DNA of 32,000 nt from Aeropyrum pernix K1 (GTDB lineage Archaea; Thermoproteota; Thermoprotei_A; Sulfolobales; Acidilobaceae). The position numbers and the translations under genes are program-made. The notes beneath the pieces were generated by a model. The model worked only from the letters and a program-made list of their open reading frames with translations, searched no databases and was not told the DNA's origin. The stretch spans positions 810,001-842,000 of the forward strand of contig NC_000854.2 of NCBI RefSeq assembly GCF_000011125.1, read 5' to 3'. The stretch's first letter is position 1. Each line of letters opens with the position of its first letter. Positions 4,096 through 31,036 of the stretch are shown piece by piece.

Positions 4096-5097
4096 ATGGC
4101 TTTCAAGATGCACGTGCCGCCGCGGGGCAGCGGCCACATAGAGGAGCCTAGGAGGCTGGACAAGGCGCTTAAAGCCCTTAAGAAGAGCCGCCTGCTTGAT
4201 ATGCTGGAGAAGGTTGACCCGGGGTTCCAGAGCCTCAGGGTCTTCGAGACCGTGCACGACCCCCTATATATTAAGGGAATCCTGGCCGAGCTGGAGGCCG
4301 CACTGGACTCGTACTTCATCGACAGCGACACGTACATAAGCCCCGGCACACAGGCGGCCCTTGAGGCGCTGGCAGCCTCGGTTGAGCAGGCTTCAGAGCA
4401 TGTTGCCGAAGGCGGTAAGGCGCTAGTGCTTGGGAGGCCGCCCGGGCATCACGCGGGAGTCGCTGGCCCGGGGCTGGGGGCGCCCAGCCTGGGAGCCTGC
4501 CTGGTGAACGCGGCAGCCTCTCTCGCATACAGACTGGCCGGGAGGGGTTTGAAGGTTCTCATCCTCGATTTTGACGCCAACCACGGCAACGGCACCCAGG
4601 AGATACTTCAGGCCCTGCCAATGGGCGATAGGCTGTTCCACCTAGACATGCACCAGGACTGGAGGAAGAGCTTCCCCTGGACTGGCGAGCCCGGCGTTAC
4701 TGGTGATGGGACTGCGTTGAACATAGTACTCCCTGAGGGGTCTGGCGACGATATAGTACTTGCACTCATAGAGGGGCTCGAGCCTCTTGTGAATGAGTCG
4801 GAGCCCGACGCTGTTGTTGTGAGCATGGGTTTCGACGGCTACTCCGGCGACAGCCCTCTCACCCTCACCAAGCTAACCTCACACACATTCCACGCGCTCG
4901 GGAGGCTGGCCTCCCGGTACCCAGTTGCAGCCGTTCTGGAGACAGGCTTCGGGAGGGGGCTGGAGCTCGGTCTCCCAGCATTCATCGCAGGCCTCCTTGG
5001 CTTGGGAAACCCTGTTCAGGAAGAGGCCATTAAAAGCGATGAAGAAGTGTGGAGGGAGTTTCTAGAGACGAATAAGGAGGTTGTGGAGCACGGCTAA
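4096..5097 (+). CDS. Histone deacetylase / acetylpolyamine amidohydrolase superfamily protein with non-canonical active-site residues
   Basis: Motifs: GRPPGHHAG (catalytic His pair), LILDFDANHGNGTQE (canonical D-x-D-x-H-H-G-[DN]-G), VVVSMGFDGYSGDSPL, and VLETGFGRG (canonical GGGY). I use ATG 4096 (MAFKMHVPP...). The track start at 3976 would overlap the upstream ORF by 70 nt. Confidence 0.8.
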   Translation: MAFKMHVPPRGSGHIEEPRRLDKALKALKKSRLLDMLEKVDPGFQSLRVFETVHDPLYIKGILAELEAALDSYFIDSDTYISPGTQAALEALAASVEQASEHVAEGGKALVLGRPPGHHAGVAGPGLGAPSLGACLVNAAASLAYRLAGRGLKVLILDFDANHGNGTQEILQALPMGDRLFHLDMHQDWRKSFPWTGEPGVTGDGTALNIVLPEGSGDDIVLALIEGLEPLVNESEPDAVVVSMGFDGYSGDSPLTLTKLTSHTFHALGRLASRYPVAAVLETGFGRGLELGLPAFIAGLLGLGNPVQEEAIKSDEEVWREFLETNKEVVEHG

Positions 5098-6503
5098 CCC
5101 TTATTCCTAGCCAATAGTATGTAGCCTGCCAACCCCACTATAGCCAGGCCTGCCAGGCCCGCTATTACTGTGAGCCCGCTGCCCTCCTCCGACTCTGAAG
5201 TCGCTCCTCCCGCCTGTTGGGGCGTGGTGGAGGTCTGCTGGCCGTAGTTTACCAGTAGCACTACCTTCTTCAGGATATCGATATTCTCCTTCGTGACTTC
5301 TACACTATCAGTCACAGCACCGTCTATGTACAGTGCATTTCCGCTCTCCGCCGAGAGGACTACGTTATACTCCTCAGGGCTGGCCGCCGCTGCCCAGAGG
5401 TATAGCTTCCTATGGGCCTCGAACGCCATGACGGGGTAGTCGGTGTAGCCTTCTATCTCAAGCTCAATGTTGTAGAGGCCGTTTGCAATTTCCGCGGCGG
5501 CCCTGAGACTCTCCACTCCCGCCGCCGCTCCAGCCAGGGAAGCTAGGTCCCCGTTTGCTGTCGCTTGGCCCCTAAGGGTGAATTCCCCTTCGGATACTGT
5601 GAGGGAGGCCTCGAGGCCGGCCTCACCCTCCTGGACACCCGCCAGGGCTGCTGCTATCCTTGAAAACAGTTCTCCCTCTGTGGTGTCTATGGTGAACTCT
5701 ATGGTGGGTGGCTCTGAGTCGCTCACCTCGAATTCAACCTGAACTCCTTCATGCTTATCAACCTCCTCAAGCAGCTCAACTATGTGGTCTATAACCTCTT
5801 CTTTGGCCTCTTCGTCGCTTGCAATTACGGTTATAGAACCCTCGGCGTAGAGTGCTCCGGGACCATTCTCACCGGCTGGAGAGGTATAAGTTATCGAGCC
5901 GTTGTACTCAAGCCTTACTTCCCCTTCATACTCTGGGCCTAGGAGGGCGGAGGCGCTGCCAGCTAGCGACCCCTGGTAGGTGCCTGCAAACCCGCCGTCA
6001 CTCTCCTCCAGTCTTAGTACGAGCGATTTGTCTAGCCAGCCTTCGCCGGCATCCTCACGATACTTCTTACAATCCACACCGCTCCACGAGGCTTCTCCAT
6101 CTAGCGTGGCTTCGAAAACGCCCTCAGACGCCACTACGTTTATGGTAAGGGTTTTCTCGAGACTCCCTATATCACATTCCTCGATATTGACTTCGCCTAC
6201 CGCCTCTAGTGAAGCCTGTAGAGCATCGCCGCTATAGTCAATGGAGGCATTAAGCTCCTCTATACTCACTAAGCCGCTCGGGCTGGCCTCGCCAACAACC
6301 TCTATGTAAGTCCTATACCCTGTGCTCCAGAATACACTATCCCCACCGAACTTGTCTATAGCTGCGTCGAAGACACTCCATGGGAGGCCCTTCCACGACT
6401 CCCCCTCAGCATGGTCCGCGAGAACGAGGACTCCGGGAACTGTCAGTAGGGCTATCAATGCGGTTGGTATAGCGTATAGCGCAAGTTTGCGGAGCATCAA
6501 CAC
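5094..6503 (-). CDS. Acidic secreted/surface protein with N-terminal signal/anchor and C-terminal Thr/Ser/Gln linker plus TM anchor
   Basis: 469 aa. The N-terminus is MLRKLALYAIPTALIALLTVPGVLVLA and the body is very Glu/Asp-rich. The C-terminus is QQTSTTPQQAGGATSESEEGSGLTVIAGLAGLAIVGLAGYILLARNKG. The start is GTG 6503 or ATG 6497. I recognise no enzymatic motif. Confidence 0.7.
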   Translation of the reverse strand: MLMLRKLALYAIPTALIALLTVPGVLVLADHAEGESWKGLPWSVFDAAIDKFGGDSVFWSTGYRTYIEVVGEASPSGLVSIEELNASIDYSGDALQASLEAVGEVNIEECDIGSLEKTLTINVVASEGVFEATLDGEASWSGVDCKKYREDAGEGWLDKSLVLRLEESDGGFAGTYQGSLAGSASALLGPEYEGEVRLEYNGSITYTSPAGENGPGALYAEGSITVIASDEEAKEEVIDHIVELLEEVDKHEGVQVEFEVSDSEPPTIEFTIDTTEGELFSRIAAALAGVQEGEAGLEASLTVSEGEFTLRGQATANGDLASLAGAAAGVESLRAAAEIANGLYNIELEIEGYTDYPVMAFEAHRKLYLWAAAASPEEYNVVLSAESGNALYIDGAVTDSVEVTKENIDILKKVVLLVNYGQQTSTTPQQAGGATSESEEGSGLTVIAGLAGLAIVGLAGYILLARNKG

Positions 6504-6847
6504 TTAATCACCTGCCGAGGACCTCCATTTACTATCATTATATCTTTGAAAGATATTTAACTAGGCCTGAACCCAAAGTTGAAGTGTTTGAACAACCTCT
6601 TACGCCTACCGGTTCTGCAAGAACCAGAATAATTTGTTAATCCTTGTTGTTGTGCTGATATTGTTACCTTTTGTTATTTAATGGAAGGAATTTTAACATT
6701 GTTGTTTAACATTGTTCACTATTAAAATATTTATAATCCAGGGCTATGTAAACACCTCGTACCCAGTCTAGGATTCCGGTTTGGGCTTAATAACATAGTA
6801 CTATTAATGATTATATTACGGCCTTTTCGGCTGGAGGGTGAGAGTTC
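6504..6847. promoter_or_regulatory. AT-rich divergent control region upstream of narG and of the acidic surface protein gene
   Basis: This is the most AT-rich stretch in the window. It contains the palindromes TATCTTTgAAAGATA (6541-6555) and GGTTCTgcaAGAACC (6611-6625), and eight TTGTT pentamers between about 6633 and 6717. TATA-like elements are AAAATATTTATAAT (about 6723-6737) and TTATATTA (6812-6819). An SD-like GGAGGGTGA lies at 6833-6841. Confidence 0.7.
6692..6717. repeat. Tandem 13-bp direct repeat TTTAACATTGTT(g/c) x2
   Basis: Read directly: TTTAACATTGTT occurs at 6692-6703 and again at 6705-6716, about 130 nt upstream of the narG start. Confidence 0.85.
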
Positions 6848-9800
6848 TTGTCTCAGCAGAAGGGTGAAGGCAATGGTGGAGGTCCTGTCAAGCTGAGCAG
6901 GCGCGGCTTCTTGAAGGTGCTCGCGGCCGCCGGCCTGCTGTCGAGCCTCGGCCCGCTGGCTTCCGCTCTCTCCAGCAACAGATATCTCACCACAATCGAG
7001 ACCCCCCGCCTCGGCTACCCCGAGGACCTCAGGGGCTGGGAGAAGTTCTACAGGGACATGTGGGCCTATGATAAGGTGGCGAGGAGCACCCACGGAGTCA
7101 ACTGTACTGGGAGCTGCAGCTGGATGGTTTACGTCAAGGACGGTATAGTAGCTTACGAGCTCCAGGCTGGCGACTACCCTGACATAGGGCCCAGCTACCC
7201 CAACTACGAGCCCAGGGGCTGTCCCAGGGGTGCAAGCACCTCCTGGTACCTCTACAGCCCCTTGAGGGTGAAGTACCCCTACGTCAGGAAGCCTCTCCTG
7301 GAGCTTTGGAGGGAGGCTAGGAGCAGCTACAGCGATCCTGTGGAGGCCTGGGCTGGTATAGTCGAGGATCCTGATAAGAGGAGCAGGTATGTGAGGGCGA
7401 GGGGTCTTGGAGGCTGGGTCAGGGCCGACTGGGACACCGTTCTGGAGATAATAGCCTCGGCCCTCGTGTACACAATCAAGAAGTACGGGCCCGACCGGAT
7501 ATTCGGCTTCACCCCCATACCCGCAATGAGCCCCGTCAGCTACGCCAGCGGCGCCAGGTTCATAGAGCTAATAGGAGGCTCCATGGGCAGCTTCTACGAC
7601 TGGTACGCCGATCTTCCGCCGGCGAGCCCCCAGGTTTGGGGTGAGCAGACGGACGTCCCGGAGAGCGCTGACTGGTTCAACGCAGCCTACATTATAAACT
7701 TCGGCACCAACATACCGATGACCAGGACTCCGGACGCCCAGTTCTTCACGGAGGTTAGGTACAAGGGCACGAAGATCGTGGTGGTGAGCCCAGACTTCAG
7801 CGAGCACACCAGGTTCGCCGACGTCTGGGTCCCCATTAAGGAAGGCACCGACGGGGCCTTCGCCATCTCTATGGCGCACGTTATACTGAGGGAGTACTAC
7901 GTGGAGAGGCAGGTAGACTTCTTCATAGACTATGTCAAGAGGTTTACAGACCTGCCCTTCCTGATCGTGCTGGAGCCCTATGAAGGCGGCTACAGGCCCG
8001 GCAAGTTCCTGAGGCTCTCCGACCTACACCCCGAGGAGTACTACAGCGAGGGCTACAGCGGCGAGCCTAACAAGGAGTGGAAGCTCCTCGTGTACGACTC
8101 GAACACAGGCAGGCCGAGGCTTGTGAACGGGAGCATAGGCTACCGGTGGGACGGCAGCGGCAAGTGGAACCTCAAGCTCGAAGACCCGATCACCGGGGAG
8201 CCTGTGGACCCGAAGCTCTCCTTAATAGACGATAGCGACGAGGTGGTGATGGTAAAGTTCCCGGTGTTCGGGGCCTCCTTCGGCGAGAAGGGCATAGTGG
8301 AGAGGGGTGTGCCGGCGAAGAGGGTGAAGCTCGCCGACGGCAGCGAGGCCCTTGTGGCCACGGTGTTCGACCTCCTGGCGGCCTATCTGGGCGTTGACAG
8401 GGGCCTCCCCGGCGACTATCCGGCGGGATACGATGATAAGAAGCCCTTCACCCCGGCTTGGCAGGAGGACATAACCGGTGTGAGCAGGGAGCTCGCCATA
8501 AGACTCGCCAGGGAGTGGGCTGACACGGCGGTGAAGACCCGGGGCAGGGTCATGGTCATGCTGGGCCCGGGCGTCAACCACTGGTTCCACAGCGACCTCC
8601 ACTACAGGGCCATACTGACCCTAGTCAAGCTGACTGGAGCGGAAGGCAGGAACGGGGGAGGATGGGCCCACTACGTCGGCCAGGAGAAGATCAGGACGAT
8701 AGCGGGCTGGGCCAAGCTGGCCTTCGCCCTGGACTGGGTCTTGCCGCCGAGGCACCAGAACAGCCCGAGCTTCTACTACGTCCACACGGACCAGTGGAGG
8801 TATGACAGGCTGACCACGGACTACTATGAGGGGCCCTGGAGCGACGTGAGGGAGAAGATGAAGTGTAGCCACCCGATGGACTGCAACATAAAGGCCGCCA
8901 GGCTGGGCTGGCTACCCTTCTACCCCCAGTTTAACAGGAGCACGCTGGACCTAGCGGCGGAGGCTAGGAGGCTTGGGAAGGATCCCGTGCAGCACGTGGT
9001 AGACCTTCTGAAGAGCGGCCAGCTGAAGCTGGCGATAGAGGACCCGGACGCCCCTGAGAACTGGATTAGGGTCATGTTCGTCTGGAGGGCTAACCTCCTC
9101 GGCAGCAGCGGCAAGGGCCACGAGTACTTCCTGAAGCACCTGCTGGGGAGCCCGATGGCCCAGCCTATGAGCGAGGAGGTGGACAGGAGCCTCATCAAGG
9201 AGGTTGTATGGAGGGCCGCCCCCGAGGGGAAGCTGGACCTCCTGGTGGCAATAGACTTCAGGATGGCCACCACCCCGATATACGCCGACATAGTGCTCCC
9301 CGCCGCGACATGGTATGAGAAGTACGATCTGAGCATGACAGACCTCCACACGTTCCTACACCCCTTCACCCCCGCAGTGGACCCGCTTTGGGAGAGCAAG
9401 AGCGACTGGGACATATTCAAAGAGCTGGCGAGGAAGTTCAGCGAGATAGCGGCCAACCACTTCCCAGACGAGGTCGAGGACATCGTAGCCAGGCCCCTCT
9501 GGCACGACACGCCCATGGAGATAGCCCAGCCCTACGGTGTCGAGAAGGACTGGAGGTATGGCGAGACGGAGCCGGTGCCGGGCAAGACGATGTGGGACCT
9601 TAAGGTGGTTAAGAGGGACTACAGGAACGTGTACAAGATGTTCATAAGCCTGGGGCCGAAGGCCAGGAAGGCCGGCGTCAAGGGAGTAAGCTACGACACC
9701 AGCGACATCTACGAGATGCTGAAGGAGGACCTGGGCGTAGTGTACTGGGAGAAGTGTCCCGACGGCTGTCCAAGCGTAGAGAGCGACAAGAACGCAGCCG

Positions 9801-10699
9801 AGGCTATACTAGCCCTGAGCCCTGAGGCCAACGGCCTGGTGGGTGAGAGGAGCTTCGCCAGCCTCGAGGCCAAGGCTGGCGTGCCGCTAAAGGACCTGGC
9901 GAAGAGTAGGGAGTGGTATAAGTTCGACGACCTTGTAGGCCAGCCTAGGAGGTCCCACACGAGCCCGATGTGGAGCGGTATAGAGGACTTCAACAGGGCC
10001 TACGCACCCTTCACCATAAACACGGAGAAGCTGGTCCCCTGGAGGACCCTCACCGGTAGGCAGCACTTCTACCTCGACCACGACTGGTTCATAGCCCTCG
10101 GAGAGATGCTGCCTACCTACAAGCCTCCCGTTGACCCTGTTAGGCTCGGCTACCTGAAGAACGCTGCGGCGAGGCTTGGGATCACGAGGATGAACGGCTA
10201 CAGGATCGAGGAGGGCGGCAGGAGGTATCTCTTGCTGAGGTACCTCACGCCCCACGGTAAGTGGAACATACACAGCGAGTTCTGGGACAACCTGAAGATG
10301 CTGACCCTGTTCAGGGGAGGCCAGGTGGTGTGGCTGAACGACGAGGACGCGAGGTGGGCCGGGATAGAGGACAACGACTGGGTGGAGATAGTAAACGACA
10401 ACGGAGTCATAGTGGCGAGGGTCGCCACCAGCCCGAGGATACCCAAGGGGGTCGCCATAATGTACCACGCCCAGGAGAGGCATATCTACGTCAGGCCGAG
10501 CAAGCTAACCGGCAAGAAGGGAGGGATCCACAACAGCGTCACCAGGGCAGACCTTAAGGTCAACCTCATGGTGGGAGGCTACGCGCAGCTGAGCTACTTC
10601 TTCAACTACTACGGCCCGACGGGTGTCGACAGGGACACCATGGTTATAGTATACCTACACGACAAGCTAGGCGCCAAGGCACCCCAGCCTGGAGCCTAG
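6848..10699 (+). CDS. narG: Respiratory nitrate reductase alpha subunit (Mo-bisMGD, NarG type) with twin-arginine export signal
   Basis: 1283 aa. The Tat motif is KLSRRGFLKVLAAAGLLSSLGPLASA. The FS0 cluster motif is HGVNCTGSCSW...EPRGCPRGASTSWYLYS. The Mo-Asp context is SFYDWYADLPPASPQVWGEQTDVPESADW, followed by TRTPDAQFFTEVRYKGTKIVVVSPDFSE. All are near-identical to E. coli NarG as I remember it. The start is TTG, preceded by GGAGGGTGA. Confidence 0.95.
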   Translation: MSQQKGEGNGGGPVKLSRRGFLKVLAAAGLLSSLGPLASALSSNRYLTTIETPRLGYPEDLRGWEKFYRDMWAYDKVARSTHGVNCTGSCSWMVYVKDGIVAYELQAGDYPDIGPSYPNYEPRGCPRGASTSWYLYSPLRVKYPYVRKPLLELWREARSSYSDPVEAWAGIVEDPDKRSRYVRARGLGGWVRADWDTVLEIIASALVYTIKKYGPDRIFGFTPIPAMSPVSYASGARFIELIGGSMGSFYDWYADLPPASPQVWGEQTDVPESADWFNAAYIINFGTNIPMTRTPDAQFFTEVRYKGTKIVVVSPDFSEHTRFADVWVPIKEGTDGAFAISMAHVILREYYVERQVDFFIDYVKRFTDLPFLIVLEPYEGGYRPGKFLRLSDLHPEEYYSEGYSGEPNKEWKLLVYDSNTGRPRLVNGSIGYRWDGSGKWNLKLEDPITGEPVDPKLSLIDDSDEVVMVKFPVFGASFGEKGIVERGVPAKRVKLADGSEALVATVFDLLAAYLGVDRGLPGDYPAGYDDKKPFTPAWQEDITGVSRELAIRLAREWADTAVKTRGRVMVMLGPGVNHWFHSDLHYRAILTLVKLTGAEGRNGGGWAHYVGQEKIRTIAGWAKLAFALDWVLPPRHQNSPSFYYVHTDQWRYDRLTTDYYEGPWSDVREKMKCSHPMDCNIKAARLGWLPFYPQFNRSTLDLAAEARRLGKDPVQHVVDLLKSGQLKLAIEDPDAPENWIRVMFVWRANLLGSSGKGHEYFLKHLLGSPMAQPMSEEVDRSLIKEVVWRAAPEGKLDLLVAIDFRMATTPIYADIVLPAATWYEKYDLSMTDLHTFLHPFTPAVDPLWESKSDWDIFKELARKFSEIAANHFPDEVEDIVARPLWHDTPMEIAQPYGVEKDWRYGETEPVPGKTMWDLKVVKRDYRNVYKMFISLGPKARKAGVKGVSYDTSDIYEMLKEDLGVVYWEKCPDGCPSVESDKNAAEAILALSPEANGLVGERSFASLEAKAGVPLKDLAKSREWYKFDDLVGQPRRSHTSPMWSGIEDFNRAYAPFTINTEKLVPWRTLTGRQHFYLDHDWFIALGEMLPTYKPPVDPVRLGYLKNAAARLGITRMNGYRIEEGGRRYLLLRYLTPHGKWNIHSEFWDNLKMLTLFRGGQVVWLNDEDARWAGIEDNDWVEIVNDNGVIVARVATSPRIPKGVAIMYHAQERHIYVRPSKLTGKKGGIHNSVTRADLKVNLMVGGYAQLSYFFNYYGPTGVDRDTMVIVYLHDKLGAKAPQPGA

Positions 10700-10732
10700 T
10701 TTTTACGGGGTGGTGCTTGGTAGGGGGTGTGA

Positions 10733-12133
10733 ATGGAGATGGTTAGGGCTCAGCTCTCCATGGTGATGGTGCTGGATAAGTGTATAGGCTGCCACACGTG
10801 CAGCCTAACCTGTAAGAACGTTTGGACCAACAGGGAGGGCCAGGAGTACGCATGGTGGAACAACGTAGAGACGAGGCCCGGCGTAGGCTACCCGAAGACC
10901 TGGGAGAACCAGGAGAAGTATGGCGGCGGCTGGGTGCTGAGGAACGGGAAGCTGAGGCTCAGGCTGGAGACCGGCAGGTTCAAGACGCCTGGCAGGGAAG
11001 ACTACTACGAGCCCTTCACATACAACTACGAGAACCTGTTCTCCGAGGAGCTGTCTGACCAGCAGCCCCACGCGGACCCGATAAGCATGTACAGCGGCGA
11101 GAAGATCGACGTGCAGTGGGGCCCCAACTTCGACGACGACCTCGCCGGAGGCGACCTGACGATACCCGCCGACCCCAACTGGTCGGGGATAGATAAGGCT
11201 ATATACAAGGAGTTTAAGAACGTGTTCATGTTCTACCTGCCGAGGATATGCAACCACTGCCTCAACCCAAGCTGCCTCGCCGCCTGCCCCAGGAAGAGCG
11301 TCTACAAGAGGCCTGAGGACGGTATAGTCCTGATAGACCAGACTAGGTGCAGAGGATACAGGCAGTGCGTCCAGGCATGCCCCTACAAGAAGGTCTACTA
11401 CAACTGGAAGACGGGTAAGAGCGAGAAATGTATATTCTGCTTCCCAAGGATAGAGACGGGCCAGCCGCCCGTCTGTGCACTGACCTGCGTCGGCAAGATA
11501 AGGTATGTGGGGGTAGTTCTATACGACGAGGAAAGGGTTCTCGAGGCTGCCAAGGCTCCGGAGGACCAGCTCGTCGCCCTGCAGAGGGACATAATCCTAG
11601 ACCCCTTCGACCCACAGGTGGTGAAGGCCGCTAGAGAGTCTGGAGTCCCGGACAACTTTATAGAGGCGGCTAGGAAGAGCCCCATATACTATATGTTCAA
11701 GAAGTGGGAGATAGCGCTGCCTCTACACCCCGAGTTCAGGACGCTGCCCATGGTGTTCTACGTGCCGCCGCTCAACCCCGTGGTGACGGTGCTAGACAGG
11801 AACGGCAAGTACAGCGCGGACTACGACAGCATACTACCGACTATAGACAAGCTCAGGATACCCATAAGGTACCTCGCAAACATGTTCGCTGCCGGAAACG
11901 AGGAGGAGGTTAGGAAAGCCCTCAAGAGGCTCCTAGCGATAAGAGAGTTCTTCAGGCAGATAGAGGTTGAGGGTAAGAGCAGGAGCGAGGCTGCGTGGGT
12001 GCTGGAGGAGAACGGCCTCACAGTGGAGGACGCCGACATGATGTTCAGGTGGCTAGCCCTCAGCAGAGACAGGTACGTGATACCCACCGCCAAGAAGGAG
12101 CTCCGAATCAGGCTGCCGAGCAAGGGCAGGTAG
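10733..12133 (+). CDS. narH: Respiratory nitrate reductase beta subunit (four Fe-S clusters)
   Basis: 466 aa. The N-terminus VLDKCIGCHTCSLTCKNVWTNREGQEYAWWNNVETRPG matches NarH. Further Cys groups are CNHCLNPSCLAACP, CRGYRQCVQACP and CIFCFPRIETGQPPVCALTCVG. An SD-like GGGGGTGTG precedes the ATG. Confidence 0.95.
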   Translation: MEMVRAQLSMVMVLDKCIGCHTCSLTCKNVWTNREGQEYAWWNNVETRPGVGYPKTWENQEKYGGGWVLRNGKLRLRLETGRFKTPGREDYYEPFTYNYENLFSEELSDQQPHADPISMYSGEKIDVQWGPNFDDDLAGGDLTIPADPNWSGIDKAIYKEFKNVFMFYLPRICNHCLNPSCLAACPRKSVYKRPEDGIVLIDQTRCRGYRQCVQACPYKKVYYNWKTGKSEKCIFCFPRIETGQPPVCALTCVGKIRYVGVVLYDEERVLEAAKAPEDQLVALQRDIILDPFDPQVVKAARESGVPDNFIEAARKSPIYYMFKKWEIALPLHPEFRTLPMVFYVPPLNPVVTVLDRNGKYSADYDSILPTIDKLRIPIRYLANMFAAGNEEEVRKALKRLLAIREFFRQIEVEGKSRSEAAWVLEENGLTVEDADMMFRWLALSRDRYVIPTAKKELRIRLPSKGR

Positions 12134-12152
12134 GGCCCGGGGGTGTGGAGCT

Positions 12153-13118
12153 GTGGCTACGGTGGCTGGCCGCGGTCTAGCAGTGCTAGCCCTTCTGGCC
12201 CTCGCCGCCCTAATAGCAGGCGTAGCAGGCTTCGCCGTGGTGACAGCCCAGGTCCCGGGTATAAACGCTGTGTACGTGGATGGGGCTATACCCCTCGACC
12301 CTACGGACAGCTTCTGGCAGCAGATGGAGAAGGCTGAGATATCCCTTGTCTCACAGAACATAGTATACCCGATGACTGGCTACGAGGACGTTAGGACCCT
12401 GCGGGTCGCCGCGGCGGTCAGCAGCGAGGGCATCCTAGCTATATACCTGGAGTGGGAAGACCCAACGATGGATGTGCCGCAGCCGGGAGGCATCGACGAG
12501 TATCCAGACAAGGTTGCCGTTCAGTTCCCGCTCTCCAGCGACTCCCTACCCTACATATGCATGGGCACCGCTGAGCAGCCCGTGAGCATAGTGCTGTGGA
12601 GCGCCTCTGGTTCTACAGAGACGTTGATAGCTGGCAGCGCCTACGGCATGAGCCCCGAGCATAGGGAGGCTCTGGGGCTGCACAGCGTCCCCACGAGCCC
12701 AATAGAGCTGGTGCCCCCAGAAGCCCAGGTCTGGGGCTCTAACGCTGTGTACAAAGATGGCAAGTGGATGGTGGTCCTCTACAGGCCCACGGGCTCCATA
12801 CACGAGTTGGTACCCACACTCGAGCCTGGAAGCGAGACGTCCGTGGCCTTCGCTGTATGGCAGGGTAGCAAGGCGGAGGTCGGGGGTAAGAAGAGCACCA
12901 GCGCCTGGTTCACCATGAGGCTTGGAATGCCCGAGGCTGCTCCCGGAGAGACGGTGACAGTCACGGAGACTCAGCCTGGGGAGACGGTGTACGAGACTGT
13001 AACCGAGACTATGACGAGGGGAGGCCTAGGACTTGCTCTTGCAGGCTTCATAGTAGGGGTCATAATCTACACTGTGGCCGTGGCGGCCTACATCTACCTG
13101 GTCAGGCCGAGGAGATAG
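12153..13118 (+). CDS. Putative haem-b subunit of type II DMSO-reductase-family enzymes (EB_dh/EbdC-SerC-DdhC-like; 'NarM'-like), with signal peptide and C-terminal TM anchor
   Basis: 321 aa with a GTG start after GGGGGTGTG. The signal-like N-terminus is GRGLAVLALLALAALIAGVAGFAVVTAQV. Candidate Met and Lys axial ligands lie in PYICMGTAEQP and VWQGSKAEVGGKKSTSAWF. A Thr/Glu repeat stalk GETVTVTETQPGETVYETVTETMT is followed by the TM segment LGLALAGFIVGVIIYTVAVAAYIYLVRPRR. The position directly after narH supports the call, but the family assignment is from memory of the EB_dh pattern. Confidence 0.6.
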   Translation: MATVAGRGLAVLALLALAALIAGVAGFAVVTAQVPGINAVYVDGAIPLDPTDSFWQQMEKAEISLVSQNIVYPMTGYEDVRTLRVAAAVSSEGILAIYLEWEDPTMDVPQPGGIDEYPDKVAVQFPLSSDSLPYICMGTAEQPVSIVLWSASGSTETLIAGSAYGMSPEHREALGLHSVPTSPIELVPPEAQVWGSNAVYKDGKWMVVLYRPTGSIHELVPTLEPGSETSVAFAVWQGSKAEVGGKKSTSAWFTMRLGMPEAAPGETVTVTETQPGETVYETVTETMTRGGLGLALAGFIVGVIIYTVAVAAYIYLVRPRR

Positions 13119-13138
13119 AATAGGGCCTAATGCAACGG

Positions 13139-13144
13139 TTTTTT
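13139..13144 (+). terminator. Oligo-T tract (T6), possible archaeal intrinsic terminator or attenuation point after the haem-b subunit gene
   Basis: ACGGTTTTTTAACC lies 21 nt after the stop at 13118. It is followed by a 154-nt gap with AT-rich TATA-like GTATAGTATA before the next ORF. Confidence 0.35.
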
Positions 13145-13272
13145 AACCCCTTCCTCCCATCCAAAACTTCTACGCACTTGTATGACCCCGGGGGTTTTCC
13201 CTGATGTATCCTATTCCACTGTATTTGGGTATAGTATACGAGTGTGCAGGAGTATAATGGAGGGTGGGTTAG

Positions 13273-14079
13273 TTGGGGAGTTCTGAGGGCCCGCGGGGTG
13301 AGTGGTTTGAGACTCTTCGAGGGCTAGCCCTCGAGTGGCTCCGCATGGCTGCCCCTGTGCTGGTAGCTGTGTACCTGGCTGAGCTCATTTTCAATAGGAT
13401 TCTATTTAGAGTGATCATCTTTATTCCGTACGGGGAGGCTCAGGATATTGTGGGTAGCCTGATAACCGTTGCTGGCGTTACTGCTGTTAACCTCAGCGTC
13501 CTCGCATCCCTGGCCACCCTTCTGGCACTCCCTCTCTACATGGAGAGGTTCAGGTATGTTCCGCTAGTCATCGCCTCCTTCTACATCTTCGACTATCTCG
13601 GGGTGGCCAGGCTCTATTGGACGCTCCCCCTTCTGGCAGCGTACATACTGGCAGTGGATCCTAAGAGGATTGTGGAGTCCCTGTTCCTCACAGCCCTCGC
13701 CCTGGACTCGATGCTGGTGGACCCCCGGCTTGACACGGTCCTGAACCTACTGTGGCTGGTATTGCCCTTAGCGTACATAGCAGTCACGAGGAGCGTGAGC
13801 ATACCCCGTGGGAAGAGCCTAGCTATAGTCTCGGCGGCGGTTCTCGTGAGCCTCTTGCTTATCGCGGGTAACACATACATCATGGGGCAGATACTGGTTT
13901 TCGCCATGGAGCTCTTGTCTCCTTGGCTACTCCCGCCCGCCATAATCCTCTACAGCCTCACAGGCAGCCTCGGCCTGCTGGGGGTGTTGATGACGGGCCC
14001 TGGCATCCAGATATCCAGCCAGATTCTAGCAGTATCCAGCCTATACCTGCTGGAGCTTAACAGAGGGAGGTGGGAGTAG
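13273..14079 (+). CDS. Polytopic membrane protein (about 8-9 TM) with no His and no Cys, encoded inside the nar operon
   Basis: 268 aa, strongly hydrophobic with regularly spaced TM-length segments. The start is TTG 13273 or ATG 13345. Its stop (14077-14079) abuts the narJ ATG (14082). I found no H or C in the translation. Confidence 0.7.
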   Translation: MGSSEGPRGEWFETLRGLALEWLRMAAPVLVAVYLAELIFNRILFRVIIFIPYGEAQDIVGSLITVAGVTAVNLSVLASLATLLALPLYMERFRYVPLVIASFYIFDYLGVARLYWTLPLLAAYILAVDPKRIVESLFLTALALDSMLVDPRLDTVLNLLWLVLPLAYIAVTRSVSIPRGKSLAIVSAAVLVSLLLIAGNTYIMGQILVFAMELLSPWLLPPAIILYSLTGSLGLLGVLMTGPGIQISSQILAVSSLYLLELNRGRWE

Positions 14080-14081
14080 AA

Positions 14082-14618
14082 ATGAGGCTGACGCTGAAAA
14101 CTCTAAGCATAATATTCAGCTACCCCAGCGAGGACCTCGAGGAGCTTGTCAGGAACAGGGAGGTTGTTAAGCCTCTTCTCATAGGGGAGGACGGTGAGGC
14201 GGCTGCCCTCATAATGGAGTTCCTAGAGAAGCTGGATCTGGAGAGGGCTGACGAGGAGTATGTAGCCGTGTTCGAGATGCCGCCGAAATGCAGCATCTAC
14301 GCCCACACCTACCTGCTGAAGGGCAAGGAGGATATGGTGGGCCAGCTCCTGCTGGAGGTTAAGAGCCACTATAAGGCTAAGCAGCTTGACATGCCTGTGG
14401 ATAGGGAGATCCCCACCTACCTCCCGGCGATGCTGGAGTACCTGGCTCTGGTTTATGATGAGGACCCTAAGGCCGCCCGCAGGTTCGCGAAGAAGTATCT
14501 TCAGCCGTGGGTCGGCGAGCTCGCGTCGTGTCTAGAGAAGAATAGGAGCCTATGGAGCCTCCCCGCGAAGGCTCTAAAAAGGGTTGTAGATAAGATTGCC
14601 GAGGGCCGGGGCCCCTAG
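14082..14618 (+). CDS. narJ: Nitrate reductase molybdenum-cofactor assembly chaperone (NarJ/TorD family)
   Basis: The NarJ-like pattern is LSIIFSYPSEDL...EYVAVFEMPPKCSIYAHTYLL...YKAKQLDMPVDREIPTYLPAMLEYLALVY. ATG 14082 is preceded by GGGAGGTGGGAG; the ORF track starts at GTG 14070. It is the last gene of the nar cluster. Confidence 0.8.
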   Translation: MRLTLKTLSIIFSYPSEDLEELVRNREVVKPLLIGEDGEAAALIMEFLEKLDLERADEEYVAVFEMPPKCSIYAHTYLLKGKEDMVGQLLLEVKSHYKAKQLDMPVDREIPTYLPAMLEYLALVYDEDPKAARRFAKKYLQPWVGELASCLEKNRSLWSLPAKALKRVVDKIAEGRGP

Positions 14619-23840: not shown

Positions 23841-24936
23841 AGCTATCCTCCTCTTCGCCATTATAACCGGACTGGTGCTTTCAGGGGCTGCAGTAGACGC
23901 TGCCATGAGGGGTGAGCTGAGGATATACACCTCAACCTCGCCCTCCAACCCCTCAGTCTATGGGGCCAGCGAGTTCTACGAGGCGGCTAGAGAGGCTTAC
24001 GACGCCGTGCTGGTGAGGAGCATTGGGGAGCTGGAGGAGCTCGCTGTTGAGGGGGGAGCGTCGATAGTTTATGTCGTGATAGCCCCGGACAAGCCTTTTA
24101 CCTATGAGGAGTACCTTGTTCTCAGCAGCCTCGCATCCCAGGGCAGGCTGAAGATTCTTGTGATGGACGAGACTATAGTGTCAAACTGGCTCCTCGAGAG
24201 GCTTGTAGGGGCTAGGGTATCCGGTGAGGAGCTTATCGTACCGGGCGCCTCGGGGGGATGGCAGTATATTGTGGATGTGGACTGCGGCTCCTTGGGGAGG
24301 GGGCTGGCTTCCAAGCCGAGCTTCATAGAGGAGGCTGCCGGGGGAGAGAGCATCTGCACTGCAGATATCGCTGGAGAAGAGAGGGTTTTGGCTGTTAAGA
24401 TCGAGAGAGGAGGGTTCAAAGCCCTAGTAGTCTCAGACTCCAGCATGTGCGCGAACTTCATGCTAGATCCTCCCCCGTGGCTGGGTGACGGGAACAGGGG
24501 CCTGTGCATGGGCCTCCTCGGCCTTCTAGTAGAGCCCGGGGATGTCGTGGTCTTCGACGATGCCCACTACAAAGGCATTCCACTATACTTCAAGTACGGA
24601 CAGGCCCTCGCCGGGCTAGCCGCGGTTCCGGCGAGGGCCCTCTCCTCCATGTGGGCTATCAACCCCTACGCCACCCTCGCATCCCTAATAGCCGTCTCCA
24701 CGGCTCTCTCGGCGCTGGCGCGCCCATGGAGGCCTCTCGAGAGGCCTCTGGGCGATGAGATGCTTGAGAAGCTCGCCCTCTACGCCCTCCAAGAGGCTGC
24801 GAGGAGAGACCCCATCCTGAGGGCCGCCCTAACCTTCGGTGTGGCCCTCAGGTTAAGGCCTCTTAGACGCCTCCTAATCGAAAGGGCTTACAGGGTTCTG
24901 GGTGTGAAGGGTGGAGAAGGTCTTCGCGCGTATTAG
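23830..24936 (+). CDS. DUF4350-like protein with N-terminal signal/anchor and C-terminal hydrophobic segment
   Basis: 368 aa; its start overlaps the upstream gene by 11 nt. DUF4350-like features are the N-terminal [51 protein letters not shown]...[29 protein letters not shown] and a late TM. The assignment is from memory of the family plus its position upstream of MoxR. Confidence 0.6.
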
Positions 24937-25831
24937 CGAGGAGGTTTCTAAGGTCATAGTTGGGAAGGAGAGGGAGATAAGGCTCGTCCTAGCCGCCCTG
25001 GCAGCCAGAGGCCATGTTCTGCTCGAGGGTGTCCCAGGCGTTGCCAAAACCACTATGGCTAGGGCCATAGCCAGGGCCACGGGCCTGAGGTTCTCTAGGA
25101 TCCAGTTCACCCCTGACATGCTGCCGAGCGATGTCATAGGGACTATGGTCTACGATCAGAGGACAGGTGAGTTCGTTTTTAGGCGTGGTCCTGTTTTTGC
25201 TAATGTTGTTCTTGCTGATGAGGTTAACCGTGCTAATCCTCGTACTCAGAGTGCTTTTCTTGAGGCTATGCAGGAGGGGCAGGTTACTGTGTGGGGTGAG
25301 ACCCACAGGCTCCCCAGCCCCTTCATAGTCCTAGCCACAATGAACCCCATAGAGCTGGAGGGAGTCTACCCACTACCAGAAGCACAACTAGACAGATTCA
25401 TGGCTCGGGTCGTTGTGGGCCATCCCTCTCTTGAGGAGCTCGTCGAGATTATGGAGAAGTACCGGAGTATAACCGAGTTTCCAGTCGAGCCTGTCGCCAG
25501 GCCGGAGGATATTGTCGCGGCGCAGGAGGCTGTGTGGAAGGTGCATGTGGATAAGAACATAAAGCTATATATCGCCAGGATCGTGGAGGAGACTCATAAA
25601 CACCCGGGAGTGTCCCTCGGAGGCTCACCCAGGGCGGCCCTCTCAATCATGATGCTGGCCAGAGGCCTGGCACTGCTAGACGGTCTCGGCTACGTTACTC
25701 CCGACCATGTTAAGGAGGCTGCCAGGGCAGCCCTCCCCCACAGGCTAATACTCACGACAGAAGCCAAGCTGGAGGGCTTGAAGCCTGAGTCGGTAGTTGA
25801 GGATGTACTCTCCTCTGTAGAGACCCCGTAA
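24911..25831 (+). CDS. moxR: MoxR-family AAA+ ATPase
   Basis: 306 aa. Walker A is [18 protein letters not shown]. Walker B and the MoxR signature are [50 protein letters not shown] is also present. The GTG start overlaps the upstream gene by 26 nt. Confidence 0.92.
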
Positions 25832-25855
25832 GACGGAGAAGGGGTTCAGGGAGGG

Positions 25856-27103
25856 TTGGCGGTGAAGCTTACTAGGAGGGGCTGGAGCCTCCTGCTGGCC
25901 TCAAGCCTCTCCTCTGCAGCGGCGCTGGCGACGGGAGACCCAATACTCCTGGCCTCAGGGCTCGTGGGTATCCTCGTCCTCGGCTTCTCCTTCCTCTACG
26001 CTAAGCGGATCCACACCCTCTTGAGCAGAGCCCGGGTTTCAAGGGCCGCTGGCCATATCAAGGCGGTTGAGGGTTCTAGGGTTAGGATAGCCTTCAGGCT
26101 GGAAGCACCGCGGGGGCTCCCAAGGGGGACTGTTGTGAGGGACTCTCCCCCGAGGAGGCTTGCGGTGATCGGAGAGCCCGAGGCTCCAGTAGAGGGGGGG
26201 CCAGGCGGGGTTGTTGAGGCCTGGTACGAGGCTAAGCCCTCTGTAGGGAGCCATAGATGGTCCGAGGTGGAGGTGTACGCTGAATCACCCGGGGGTCTTG
26301 CCGTGGCTAGCGTTAGAAACTCCCTCCCTATTTTGCTTGAGGCGGCGCCTAGCCCCAGGGCCCTGGAGGAGGTTAGGCTGAGGCTGGCCGCAATGACAGG
26401 CTATTCTAAGCCTGTGAACAGGAGGTGGCCCCTCGGCTACGAGTTTCTGGAGCTGAGGGAGTACCAGCCGGGCGATGACCCGCGTATGATACACTGGCCA
26501 TCCACAGCGAGGGCCGGGACCCTCGTCGTAAGGGAGACTGCTATGGAGACCAGGCTTAACCTTACTATAGTGTTGGACGCGAGCGGAGAGATGTGGATAG
26601 GCGGGCCAGGGGCCTCCCCTATAGACCACGCTGCCCGGCTAACACTGGCACTGGCAGCCCTCGCATGGGAGTCGGGGGGTACAGCCTCAGTGTTCCTCTT
26701 CAACGGGTGGAGCTGTTTTGAGGCTAGAAGGGCTGTTGACACAGCCTCCCTCGCCACGGTTCTCTCGAAGCTTGACGTGGGCCACGGCCGCTCAACGGAG
26801 GGTCTAGCTGGCTGCGCCCGGAAAGCAGCATCACTGAGAGCACGGAGACCCCTCATAATAGTCACCGGCCCCGCCGTCGACCTGGCTTGGCTGGTGAAGA
26901 GGGTGGAGGAGCCTCCACGCCCACCAACACCCATCACTCTCTACTCCATCATGACGCCGACTGGAGAATCCCCGGAGGAGAGGCTCGTCAGGGCAGAAAC
27001 ACTCCGCGAGGCAGAGGCTGCTGGGAGTAGGAGGGTAGTGGCGGGCGGCTGGCTGGAGGCAGGCCTTAGGATCCTTGAGACTCTGGAGGTGTATAGCCTT
27101 TGA
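25856..27103 (+). CDS. DUF58 (vWA-like) protein, the canonical MoxR partner, with two N-terminal TM helices
   Basis: 415 aa. The DUF58 hallmark is YEFLELREYQPGDDPRMIHWPSTARAGTLVVRE, followed by the vWA-like strand LTIVLDASGEM. The N-terminus has LLLASSLSSAAALA and ILLASGLVGILVLGFSFLY. The start is TTG 25856 or GTG 25862, after GGGAGGG. Confidence 0.88.
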   Translation: MAVKLTRRGWSLLLASSLSSAAALATGDPILLASGLVGILVLGFSFLYAKRIHTLLSRARVSRAAGHIKAVEGSRVRIAFRLEAPRGLPRGTVVRDSPPRRLAVIGEPEAPVEGGPGGVVEAWYEAKPSVGSHRWSEVEVYAESPGGLAVASVRNSLPILLEAAPSPRALEEVRLRLAAMTGYSKPVNRRWPLGYEFLELREYQPGDDPRMIHWPSTARAGTLVVRETAMETRLNLTIVLDASGEMWIGGPGASPIDHAARLTLALAALAWESGGTASVFLFNGWSCFEARRAVDTASLATVLSKLDVGHGRSTEGLAGCARKAASLRARRPLIIVTGPAVDLAWLVKRVEEPPRPPTPITLYSIMTPTGESPEERLVRAETLREAEAAGSRRVVAGGWLEAGLRILETLEVYSL

Positions 27104-27822
27104 ACAGGGAGGCCCGCGGGGAGTTTGCAGTACTAGTATCAGGCCTGGCCGCGGCAGCGTTCTCCTACAGCAGCGGAGGGCTCCTAGCCTCGGCCACGAT
27201 AGCCCTATCGACAGCTCTCGCCTTGTCCATCACTAGGCTCACAGGCTCCGGCGAGGCGGGAGGGCTCTCGGCGGTAGTCCTCGGGCTTGCTATATATGCT
27301 GCTGGCGCTAGGGCCGGGTCCATCATGGTTCTGGGAGGCGTGGCGTCTCTGGCCCTAGGCCTCCCTGGTGCGGTGATGCTCGCTCCGGCGGTAGCGATTG
27401 CCATCTTCCTAGCGGCTGTAGCCTGGGCCTCGAGCCTCCATGCCGAGTATGTATCCTGGAGGGCGATCTACCTCTGGGCTGTCGCCAGCGCCTCAGCCGC
27501 CTCGATAGTGATGGCAGGCAGAGGGAGGACCTCTATTGCATGGCAGGTGGCATGGGCGGTAAGGCAGCTGACCCCAGACCCTCCGGCCCTTAGGAGGATC
27601 GGGGCAGCGGTCCTATCAGCCTACCCAGCCCTCATGGCTGTCGCGGCGGGCGGCTACCCCGCAGCCATTATGGTGGGGATGGCTACACTGCTCACCTGGC
27701 GCAGACTGGGCGTTGAGACGGCTGCACTGGTAAGCCTAGCTGTAGGTGCACTCGCCGGGTTTGTGGGTCTTGTTGACTACGGGGTAGCCGTTGAGAGGAT
27801 AAACTCCCTGATAAAACAATAA
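27100..27822 (+). CDS. Ala/Gly-rich polytopic membrane protein (about 6 TM), Cys-free
   Basis: 240 aa. Its TTG start overlaps the DUF58 stop in TTGA (27100-27103), which suggests translational coupling. It has no catalytic-looking motif and no Cys. Confidence 0.65.
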   Translation: MNREARGEFAVLVSGLAAAAFSYSSGGLLASATIALSTALALSITRLTGSGEAGGLSAVVLGLAIYAAGARAGSIMVLGGVASLALGLPGAVMLAPAVAIAIFLAAVAWASSLHAEYVSWRAIYLWAVASASAASIVMAGRGRTSIAWQVAWAVRQLTPDPPALRRIGAAVLSAYPALMAVAAGGYPAAIMVGMATLLTWRRLGVETAALVSLAVGALAGFVGLVDYGVAVERINSLIKQ

Positions 27823-30888: not shown

Positions 30889-31036
30889 CTCCAGGCTGCC
30901 TCAGCCAAATGCCTTCAACTCATCCCCACGGCGTGTCGTAGTCGGGAGTAGACATCATCGGCATGTCCGGGCTGGAGGCCTCCAGGCTCTATTTTTAGAT
31001 TACCCAGGCTATTCTATATACCCCGGCTGGCCGCTC

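Follow-up and report, generated by a model that had tools for sequence, protein, structure and literature searches.

A new narM-linked membrane protein family as a candidate respiratory-chain link for the predicted outward-facing nitrate reductase of Aeropyrum pernix

The window analyzed here is a 32-kb stretch of the Aeropyrum pernix genome, and all coordinates refer to positions within it. Positions 6848–14618 of the + strand contain five genes in the order narG-narH-narM-P4-narJ, and all elements of the five-gene layout described in an earlier note on this DNA were found there. They form an operon for an archaeal 'pNar', an enzyme that is predicted from its sequences to face outward and that belongs to the E. 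coli-type NarGH lineage. In a database comparison, the translations of P4 (APE_1298) and NarM were 100% identical to A. pernix proteins, and the NarM protein of A. pernix K1 is labelled 'putative nitrate reductase, gamma subunit'.

The first gene, narG (6848–10699, + strand), encodes a Mo/W-bisPGD catalytic subunit of 1283 aa, which scored ~1631 bits against TIGR01580 (curated cutoff 1084), as expected of a NarG equivalog, and 1350 bits against E. coli NarG (1Q16_A). The FS0 and Mo-Asp signatures noted earlier (STHGVNCTGSCSW, EPRGCPRGAS, and SFYDWYaDLPPASPQ) matched E. coli NarG column for column in the alignment, with conservation of the FS0 ligands (H-x3-C-x3-C ... C) and of the Mo-binding Asp. 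The two proteins are homologous only from A. pernix residue 62 (E. coli residue 29) onward. The N-terminus contains a twin-arginine signal peptide (6848–6967, + strand; aa 1–40) with SRRGFLK at aa 17–23, a hydrophobic region, ASA at aa 38–40, and an inferred cleavage site. Its score was above the cutoff for TIGR01409 (TAT_signal_seq; 17.8 bits, cutoff 16.7) and below that for Pfam TAT_signal (16 bits, cutoff 22.7), and the twin-arginine motif was kept in 9 of 9 related NarG N-termini examined, including those of Pyrobaculum. The Tat signal on which the earlier note had based its 'pNar' topology is therefore present and conserved, and it supports the predicted outward orientation.

The NarH subunit and the NarJ chaperone named in the same note were also confirmed. 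NarH (10733–12133, + strand; 466 aa) is a four-cluster Fe-S subunit with Fer4_11 and Nitr_red_bet_C matches and an equivalog-level score for TIGR01660 (631 bits, cutoff 524). It has no signal peptide and is therefore presumably exported together with NarG. The last gene, narJ (14070–14618, + strand), encodes a Mo-cofactor insertion chaperone of 182 aa when read from a GTG start (TIGR00684, 220 bits, cutoff 59). The database form of A. pernix NarJ has 178 aa; to judge by its shorter length and the reading-frame sequence, it may start at the M5 codon (14082), in which case it would begin 2 nt past the P4 stop.

Two genes lie between narH and narJ. The product of narM (12153–13118, + strand; 321 aa) matched the EB_dh family (PF09459, 172 bits) and the profile of type II DMSO-reductase gamma subunits (TIGR03477, 269 bits, cutoff 170). 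It consists of a Sec-type signal peptide (aa 1–32, ending in VTA before a Gln), an EB_dh domain (aa 52–248), a Thr/Glu/Pro-rich linker (~aa 257–290), and a C-terminal TM helix (~aa 291–316, or ~aa 294–312 by segment prediction) followed by an RPRR tail, and this architecture was kept in 10 relatives. In an alignment to EbdC (2IVF_C), the residues M137 and K247 corresponded to EbdC Met108 and Lys201 and are the predicted haem ligands, so that NarM agrees with this gamma subunit class in both its profile score and its Met/Lys pair. The TM segments, the two profiles and the EbdC alignment thus bear out the earlier description of a C-terminally anchored, signal-peptide-bearing haem-b gamma subunit of the EbdC/SerC/DdhC type.

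The gene P4 (13273–14079, + strand) follows narM after a non-coding gap of 154 nt (13119–13272, + strand), which contains the T-runs GGTTTTTAA and GGGGGTTTTCC and a Shine-Dalgarno-like box, GGAGGGTGGG, ahead of the TTG start of P4. ORF inspection found no possible earlier in-frame start. The gap may be a site of partial termination or re-initiation; in relatives, the distance between the two genes ranged from −8 to 221 nt.

P4 encodes a polytopic membrane protein of 268 aa with ~10 TM segments and both termini predicted inside. The A. pernix protein contains no His and no Cys, as the earlier note had stated, and the family alignment showed no conserved His, Cys or Met. The residues R42, R46, D107, Y202, Q246, and S248 were invariant (R42 and R46 invariant or near-invariant) and are placed by prediction in the outer membrane half; E37, N41, R42, and R46 fall inside TM1 according to the family alignment and topology prediction. 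The AF2 model of P4 was very confident (pLDDT 95.6), indicating that P4 is a real folded protein. However, P4 had no Pfam or NCBIfam match even at E < 0.1, none of the 25 family members had one at E up to 10, and a Foldseek comparison of this model with the PDB found no match (best E 0.47, TM-score 0.25 or less); neither of two separate models matched a solved fold (best E ~0.5, TM-score < 0.27). The searches yielded 9 homologues in a set of 5.8 billion proteins and 20 representatives in one of 1.84 billion. They came only from Aeropyrum, Acidilobaceae, other Desulfurococcales, one Thermoproteales-like MAG, and Pyrobaculum, and an exhaustive HMMER search found no homologue outside crenarchaeal loci. 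In the literature on the locus tags APE_1297/1298 and PAE3611-3614, we found no description of P4.

Several identities were considered for P4 and rejected. Membership in the NrfD/PsrC/DmsC family was not supported by HMM matches or by the folds of the two models, and a functional analogy is possible. An assignment as NarI or a cytochrome b is at odds with the absence of His and Cys from the A. pernix protein and of conserved ones from the family. The Thr-rich linker, TM helix, and basic tail of NarM raised the idea that P4 could be an archaeosortase/exosortase-like processor of the NarM anchor, but such enzymes need Cys/His/Arg catalytic residues, and P4 lacks Cys, His, and any Pfam match. Recurring W-x-LP-x-x-A-Y motifs suggested an internal duplication or inverted repeat, but hhalign between the segments gave a probability below 2%.

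The genomic context of P4 was highly conserved. A P4 homologue adjoined a nar gene (narM and/or narJ) in all 14 distinct related loci that carry P4, a count that leaves out L009 and L013, duplicates of L008 and L001, respectively. At every locus where the upstream side of P4 was visible, P4 was located directly 3' of narM, even where narJ had been relocated, and the most distant family members (E 2e-12 and 1e-6) came straight after a NarM C-terminus. In Pyrobaculum ferrireducens, where narJ lies upstream in divergent orientation, P4 still starts only 4 nt past narM, indicating that the linkage of P4 is to the structural gene narM. The two genes co-occurred with narGH in every relative examined, a pattern on which the claim of the earlier note depended. 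Based on these comparisons, P4 defines a new and very small family that is strictly linked to narM. With start codons set to the longest ORF, P4 overlapped narJ in 7 of 10 loci and narM in only 2 of 11 (L008 and L016). Among relatives, P4 was the fastest-evolving of the proteins compared, with 37–57% identity, compared to 47–70% for NarM, 71–89% for NarH, and 74–89% for NarG.

P4 was missing from both types of distant operon examined. One type (L010 and L011) has a gamma subunit without an anchor together with a cytochrome b and a c-type cytochrome, and the other (L021) is an Nxr-like cluster with an anchored gamma subunit. The 235-aa gene after the gamma subunit of L021 was considered as a P4 homologue, but its product is soluble and not homologous; two further genes of unknown function that follow P4 in Pyrobaculum were also unrelated to it. 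A first genome scan with single-protein NarM patterns gave no matches.

The earlier note had also stated that neither NarI nor NarK is encoded here. We detected no NarI, cytochrome b, Rieske protein, or NarK/nitrate transporter in the 32-kb window, either among 26 large flanking ORFs searched with Pfam or NCBIfam or in a hydropathy and CxxCH screen of all ORFs of at least 90 aa. The NarI di-haem cytochrome b was absent from the operon, the window, and the related loci examined, no cytochrome b was a conserved neighbour in the window or related loci, and no other candidate membrane redox module was found within ~10 kb in the Aeropyrum, Desulfurococcales, and Thermoproteales-like loci. The profile scans and the screen detected only three other polytopic products in the window, namely two ABC permeases and a 240-aa protein (27100–27822); the latter has a single His, sits in a MoxR/DUF58 cluster, and is unrelated to P4.

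The operon as such belongs to the already-described NarGH-NarM type of nitrate/(per)chlorate reductase. A. pernix has been tied to (per)chlorate respiration via a pNar-type enzyme (PMC6299022), and NarM was described as a membrane anchor that co-purified with NarGH from Pyrobaculum aerophilum (PMC4683180). The statement of the earlier note that the coupling of the enzyme to the respiratory chain is unexplained therefore holds in part: the operon has no NarI or quinol module, but this is the published pNarGH-NarM architecture and not an oddity, and the coupling of outward-facing archaeal Nar has already been posed as an open question (PMC4683180), which makes the observation a rediscovery.

The A. 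pernix operon shares a Tat-type NarG leader, NarH, and the lack of NarI with the Mo/W nitrate reductase NarGHM of P. aerophilum (Afshar 2001 and de Vries 2010, as cited in PMC4683180), and in both species NarM combines a haem-b domain of the EB_dh type with one TM anchor at the C-terminus. P. ferrireducens, a sister species of P. aerophilum, has the same narG-narH-narM-P4 order. Pyrobaculum NarG was 57–60% identical to A. pernix NarG, and P4 of Pyrobaculum, with 232 aa, is the shorter protein and only a distant relative (hhalign E 4e-24). The Pyrobaculum locus differs in its divergent, upstream narJ and in having an MFS gene, an ArsR-like gene, and the two genes after P4. In the accessible literature the P. 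aerophilum enzyme is described with three subunits and P4 is not mentioned. Work by de Vries et al. in 2010 reportedly found the purified enzyme to consist of three subunits (NarGHM) and to be reducible by quinol; if so, the enzyme does not strictly need P4 in vitro.

Haloarchaeal pNarGH clusters (Haloferax mediterranei, Haloarcula) likewise combine an outward Tat-NarGH, the EbdC-like b-type cytochrome Orf7, and NarJ (PMC4683180), but they carry their own quinol-oxidising module of NarB (Rieske) and NarC (cytochrome b), whereas the A. pernix operon lacks these and contains P4. E. coli NarGHI (1Q16) shares with A. pernix the NarG and NarH equivalogs, the FS0 His/Cys3 and Mo-Asp ligands, and NarJ; however, the E. 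coli enzyme lacks a functional Tat signal, has its NarGH on the cytoplasmic side, needs NarK, and uses the di-haem NarI as its membrane subunit, while A. pernix has a Tat signal and, instead of NarI, NarM and P4. EbdABC (2IVF), SerABC, ClrABC, and DdhABC have the gamma family and Met/Lys haem-b ligation in common with NarM, and these soluble type II enzymes, like that of A. pernix, are exported by Tat (alpha) and Sec (gamma). They differ in that their gamma subunit has no TM anchor, their alpha subunit is not a NarG equivalog, and no P4-like gene is present.

A separate comparison concerns the anchors of the NrfD/PsrC/DmsC type, which are quinol sites without a cofactor. They resemble P4 functionally in being polytopic, of similar size (8–10 TM), free of haem and Fe-S, and encoded with a complex iron-sulfur molybdoenzyme; however, they touch the Fe-S subunit directly with no haem-b subunit between, and they have no sequence or fold similarity to P4. 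Given such anchors, the absence of His and Cys from a membrane protein is no sound basis for the earlier inference that it is unable to oxidise quinol.

We propose the following model, in which the roles of the known subunits follow their families. NarJ would load the cofactor onto NarG in the cytoplasm, and folded NarG carrying bound NarH would leave via Tat. NarM would be exported unfolded via Sec, take up one haem b with Met137/Lys247 ligation as in EbdC, and be held by its C-terminal TM helix behind a Thr-rich stalk of ~35 residues. The haem b of NarM would hand electrons to the Fe-S clusters of NarH, from which they would reach Mo/W by way of FS0, and nitrate, or chlorate/perchlorate, would be reduced outside the cell, so that no nitrate transporter would be needed. 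The invariant Arg, Asp, Tyr, Trp, Gln, and Ser residues of P4, clustered in the outer membrane half, could form a docking surface for the NarM haem domain.

Within this model, we slightly favour the idea that P4, as an integral membrane protein, pairs with the anchor helix of NarM at or near stoichiometric amounts. The strict linkage to narM, the absence of P4 from the two distant operon types, the lack of a rival membrane redox module nearby, the polar residues on the outer side, and the confident model argue for P4 as a member of the complex. That these residues form a menaquinol-oxidising site, with P4 as a functional replacement for NarI, seems rather unlikely. P4 resembles none of the known quinol-oxidising subunits, such as NarI, NrfD/PsrC/DmsC, or cytochrome b, in sequence or fold. 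The long flexible stalk of NarM also argues against a rigid, short distance between haem and membrane. The most specific form, in which P4 is an unrecognised, cofactor-less fourth NarGHM subunit with ~10 TM segments and a new fold that forms the menaquinol site together with the NarM anchor helix, is a little less likely still. In the proposed model, quinol oxidation and nitrate reduction would both occur outside, and the enzyme itself would therefore be electroneutral. Taken as a whole, a pNar operon with P4 as the membrane partner of NarM, and possibly as a quinol site, is our best explanation, and we hold it tentatively, at somewhat under even chances.

Electrons could instead come from outside the operon. 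A Rieske/cytochrome b complex would oxidise menaquinol, and the monohaem cytochrome c APE_1719.1 or another pseudo-periplasmic carrier would reduce the NarM haem b, mirroring SerABC, ClrABC, and DdhABC. The role of P4 would in that case be limited to anchoring or stabilising without redox activity, or P4 would have nothing to do with electron flow. By TIGR03477, NarM is one of the EbdC/SerC/DdhC gamma subunits, a family whose members exchange electrons with c-type cytochromes. The Thr-rich stalk of NarM is flexible, as would suit a catalytic module that is mobile but tethered, and the distant operons L010 and L011 place a cytochrome b and a c-type cytochrome beside the enzyme. Outside the operon a plausible electron route does exist, since A. 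pernix has genes for a canonical bc complex with a cytochrome c at another place in its genome, and Aeropyrum and Pyrobaculum, the cultured genera in which we found NarM with P4, both encode such complexes (PMC4429474). In addition, the pNar of haloarchaea works with a Rieske/cytochrome b pair and shows antimycin-sensitive activity (PMC4683180). However, the bc genes of A. pernix are unlinked to nar, no nar locus examined contained a carrier gene, the strict linkage of narM and P4 would be left unexplained, and NarM, unlike SerC or EbdC, has gained a membrane anchor. This external route appears improbable rather than remote, and we consider it nearly as likely as the reading of P4 as the NarM partner.

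The faster divergence of P4 and its more frequent overlap with narJ than with narM count against a structural subunit and would also fit a role in maturation, in which P4 acts alongside NarJ, for example by supplying extracellular NarM with haem b at the outer face or fitting it there, by putting the tail anchor in place, or by docking Tat-exported NarGH onto NarM. In most loci narJ starts ahead of or right next to the P4 stop, and the 154-nt gap with T-runs parts P4 and narJ from narGHM in A. pernix and could lower their expression. How Sec-exported gamma subunits acquire haem b has no general explanation, and, speculatively, the conserved Arg pair and Tyr of P4 could bind haem propionates and iron. 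On the other hand, bacterial SerC, EbdC, and DdhC mature without a P4 homologue, and the P4 members with examined context, in a family of 20 representatives, were all in crenarchaeal NarM operons. P4 has none of the conserved His, Cys, or Met usual in haem handlers, overlaps narM in L008 and L016, and remains with narM in Pyrobaculum though narJ has relocated. We regard biogenesis as quite unlikely. Less likely still is that P4 transports a small solute such as nitrite, chlorite, molybdate, or tungstate, with its intramembrane Arg binding the oxyanion. Nitrate/nitrite carriers of the NarK type are characterised by Arg within their TM helices, and R42, R46, and E37/N41 within TM1 and the ~10 TM segments would suit this idea, but with an enzyme that faces outward neither substrate nor product ever has to cross the membrane, the Foldseek and profile searches revealed no resemblance to a transporter fold or family, no internal inverted repeat was detected, and an MFS gene is already present in the Pyrobaculum nar locus.

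The operon itself adds nothing new on the electron supply and energy conservation of outward-facing archaeal Nar, an acknowledged question since the pNar concept was proposed (PMC4683180). The new point is the P4 family, which adjoins narM, has no known fold, and, being linked to narM from Aeropyrum to Pyrobaculum, gives the coupling question a concrete and testable candidate for the missing respiratory-chain link. If the proposed quinol function is true, P4 and the NarM anchor helix would represent a new type of quinol-coupling module beside the NarI, NrfD, and Rieske/cytochrome b types. The P4 family also bears on hyperthermophilic nitrate/(per)chlorate respiration in A. pernix, long held to be strictly aerobic.

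Upstream of narG, an AT-rich region contains a tandem direct repeat (6692–6716, + strand) of two 100% identical copies of TTTAACATTGTT, 13 nt apart, which is a possible regulator-binding site.

Five ORFs, all in the same direction, occupy positions 6848–14618 (+), and four of them were assigned by curated profiles with scores above the trusted cutoffs. These were NarG (TIGR01580, 1631 bits vs a cutoff of 1084), NarH (TIGR01660, 631 vs 524), the type II DMSO-reductase haem-b gamma subunit NarM (TIGR03477, 269 vs 170; PF09459 EB_dh, 172 bits), and NarJ (TIGR00684, 220 vs 59). The fourth ORF (13273–14079, +) encodes a 268-aa protein, here termed P4, which had no Pfam or NCBIfam profile match even at E < 0.1. 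P4 and NarM were 100% identical to Aeropyrum pernix proteins named in databases as "hypothetical protein APE_1298" and "putative nitrate reductase, gamma subunit", respectively. Database entries disagree on the start of P4: the protein is 244 aa long in the original K1 record (BAA80289.1), compared with 268 aa in RefSeq and 270 aa for another strain. The family alignment favours the long form, because the conserved residues start at ~aa 22. The NarG signatures quoted in the earlier note are real: the FS0 block (STHGVNCTGSCSW...EPRGCPRGAS) and the Mo-Asp block (YDWYaDLPPASP) matched E. coli NarG column for column in an alignment.

Homology to E. coli NarG starts at NarG residue 62, which aligned to E. 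coli residue 29. The leader ahead of it contains S-R-R-G-F-L-K, a hydrophobic stretch, and A-S-A. This leader passed the NCBIfam Tat model (17.8, cutoff 16.7) and scored below the cutoff of the Pfam Tat model (16, cutoff 22.7). All nine N-termini extracted from related NarG proteins, Pyrobaculum among them, retained the twin-arginine motif, which supports the export signal proposed from the sequence. NarH is without a signal peptide. NarM starts with a Sec-type signal peptide (...VTA|Q), followed by the EB_dh domain, ~35 linker residues rich in Thr/Glu/Pro, a TM helix near the C-terminus, and a basic tail; this layout was conserved in ten relatives. Counted through the alignment, NarM M137 and K247 are the counterparts of the EbdC (2IVF_C) haem-b ligands Met108 and Lys201. 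The likeness to EbdC and the C-terminal anchor noted before both held. The NarG leader and the NarM layout and ligands together argue strongly for an enzyme that would face outward, with a tethered haem-b subunit.

The reported lack of NarI and of a nitrate/nitrite transporter was borne out over the whole 32-kb window. Neither profile scans (Pfam or NCBIfam) of 26 flanking ORFs nor a screen of all ORFs ≥90 aa for hydropathy and CxxCH motifs detected NarI, a Rieske protein, a cytochrome b, a c-type cytochrome, or a NarK-like transporter. Around the operon lie genes for a branched-chain amino-acid ABC transporter and acyl-CoA synthetases, together with a MoxR/DUF58 cluster, a histone-deacetylase-like gene, and one for a secreted acidic protein.

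P4 contains no His and no Cys, as the earlier note had stated, and neither residue was conserved anywhere in the family alignment of 25 sequences. The invariant or near-invariant residues in this alignment are R42, R46, F50, P52, G68, D107, W161, P165, Y202, P217, L220, Y227, G242, P243, Q246, and S248, and the family motifs are ELxxNRxLxRVxIFIPPG, LWLLAPLP, NPYIxGQ, and LLTGPxxQLSxQ. From family-averaged hydropathy and the positive-inside rule, P4 is predicted to have ~10 TM segments and to keep its two termini on the inside, which would place most of the invariant polar residues in the outer membrane half. An AlphaFold2 model built from 24 sequences had a pLDDT of 95.6 and a pTM of 0.91, indicating that P4 is a real, well-folded membrane protein. 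A Foldseek comparison of this model with 350,542 PDB chains gave no match (best E 0.47, TM-score ≤0.25), and an earlier model with a pLDDT of 78.8 likewise had no fold match. No Pfam family recurred among the P4 members, even weakly, and no internal repeat was found in P4. P4 falls outside every described family, and it is neither NarI- nor NrfD- nor cytochrome-b-like.

Homologues of P4 were few: nine among 5.8 billion proteins searched by word index, and 20 when 1.84 billion cluster representatives were searched exhaustively with a HMMER profile. Six P4 loci were found in the 185,579 species genomes scanned, all from Aeropyrum, Acidilobaceae, or Desulfurococcales MAGs; this taxon list is a lower bound. 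A. pernix and A. camini carry the genes, yet neither genome was returned by two genome scans, so the species-genome collection or the pattern step misses some true loci. Through NarG homologues, P4 was also found in a Thermoproteales-like MAG (hhalign E 4e-55) and in Pyrobaculum ferrireducens (hhalign E 4e-24). The gene order narG-narH-narM-P4 was seen in every locus of sufficient length. Even the two most distant placeable members, P0054 and P0057, each lie directly 3' of a NarM C-terminus with the Lys-ligand motif, Thr-rich linker, and anchor. In P. ferrireducens, narJ is divergent and upstream while P4 still lies 4 nt past narM, showing that P4 is linked to narM and not to the chaperone gene narJ.

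The Pyrobaculum locus (L019, CP003098, 6500–8866 and 15907–17518) further differs from that of A. pernix in that narJ lies beside an ArsR-like regulator and an MFS transporter, and P4 is followed by a 270-aa soluble protein (5 Cys) and a 243-aa polytopic protein (4 His). Both lack Pfam matches, and the second, with its His residues, could have a bearing on electron input in Pyrobaculum. P4 was absent from the distant operons examined. In two Nxr/Nar-like operons (L010, 171–9480; L011, 459–9505), the gamma subunit has no anchor, and genes for a cytochrome b and a c-type cytochrome lie immediately 5' of the alpha/beta/gamma genes. The Nxr-like cluster L021 (733–10615) has an anchored gamma subunit followed by a soluble protein unrelated to P4, and a cytochrome bd-like subunit and c-type cytochromes directly upstream of its alpha/beta/gamma genes. 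These operons exemplify electron-transfer modules linked in cis in other lineages.

By family knowledge and the conserved ligands, NarM haem b would pass electrons to the NarH Fe-S clusters, from which they would reach Mo/W via FS0. For the step before NarM, we lean towards P4 as the integral-membrane partner of the NarM helix, and more tentatively suggest that it possibly supplies a menaquinol site. Three observations underlie both proposals: across two crenarchaeal orders P4 is linked strictly and exclusively to narM, these loci contain no other membrane redox gene, and conserved residues of the Arg, Asp, Tyr, Trp, Gln, and Ser types cluster on the predicted outer side. Such residue types form quinone sites, for example in succinate:quinone reductase. 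The earlier inference from missing His and Cys to an inability to oxidise quinol is invalid, because NrfD/PsrC/DmsC-type anchors are also cofactor-less. However, P4 is unlike any of these anchors, the NarM stalk is long and probably flexible, and P4 is the fastest-evolving of the five operon proteins. With longest-ORF starts, P4 overlaps narJ in seven of ten loci and narM in only two of 11, and a 154-nt gap with T-runs precedes it in A. pernix. The purified Pyrobaculum enzyme reportedly has three subunits and is reducible by quinol, which also counts against this reading.

In a possible route nearly as likely as the preferred one, electrons would reach NarM by way of the bc complex, encoded away from the operon, and its cytochrome c (APE_1719.1, APE_1724.1, APE_1725.1). 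It is favoured by the canonical bc complexes encoded in both Aeropyrum and Pyrobaculum (PMC4429474). The soluble relatives SerABC, ClrABC, and DdhABC also work with c-type cytochromes. It is rather unlikely that P4 is instead a biogenesis factor for NarM, acting for example in extracellular haem-b insertion, and a function as an oxyanion transporter is improbable.

Archaeal Nar enzymes are described in the literature as reducing nitrate on the outer side. A. pernix, formerly held to be a strict aerobe, uses such an enzyme for anaerobic growth on perchlorate (PMC6299022), and its Nar is included in published periplasmic nitrate reductase alignments (PMC8840923). The operon architecture and the coupling question were therefore already known, which makes the finding a correct rediscovery. 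The observation itself holds, and the earlier interpretation is supported in part, being right in its anatomy and unsound in one inference. No mention of P4 was found in the searchable literature, and the evidence on P4 is the part that goes beyond findable publications. As a conserved family with no known fold, P4 makes the long-standing coupling question directly experimental.

Several other features were observed around the operon. The AT-rich 340-nt spacer between narG and the divergent gene contains a perfect tandem repeat of TTTAACATTGTT (two copies, 6692–6716, +) and a third, degenerate copy at 6637–6651, upstream of TATA-like boxes; the repeats may be a transcription-regulator binding site. 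The product of the divergent gene (5094–6503, −) is an acidic protein of 469 aa that has a signal peptide, a stalk rich in Ser/Thr/Gln, and a TM anchor at the C-terminus. No Pfam or NCBIfam family matched this apparent surface protein, and its adjacency to nar was not conserved in relatives. A histone-deacetylase-family gene (PF00850; 3976–5097, +) lies <2 kb from the operon on its upstream side, and one directly follows narJ in an Acidilobaceae MAG (L001, 11455–12483, −; L002, 1968–2996, −), making this family a recurring nar neighbour. A cluster at 24911–27822 (+), preceded by DUF4129, consists of genes for a MoxR AAA+ ATPase, a DUF58 protein, and a membrane protein of 240 aa (~6 TM) that lacks annotation and proved unrelated to P4. 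A C/D-box small RNA (Rfam sR11, RF01150) was identified at 30900–30962 (−) with 39.3 bits against a gathering score of 39.
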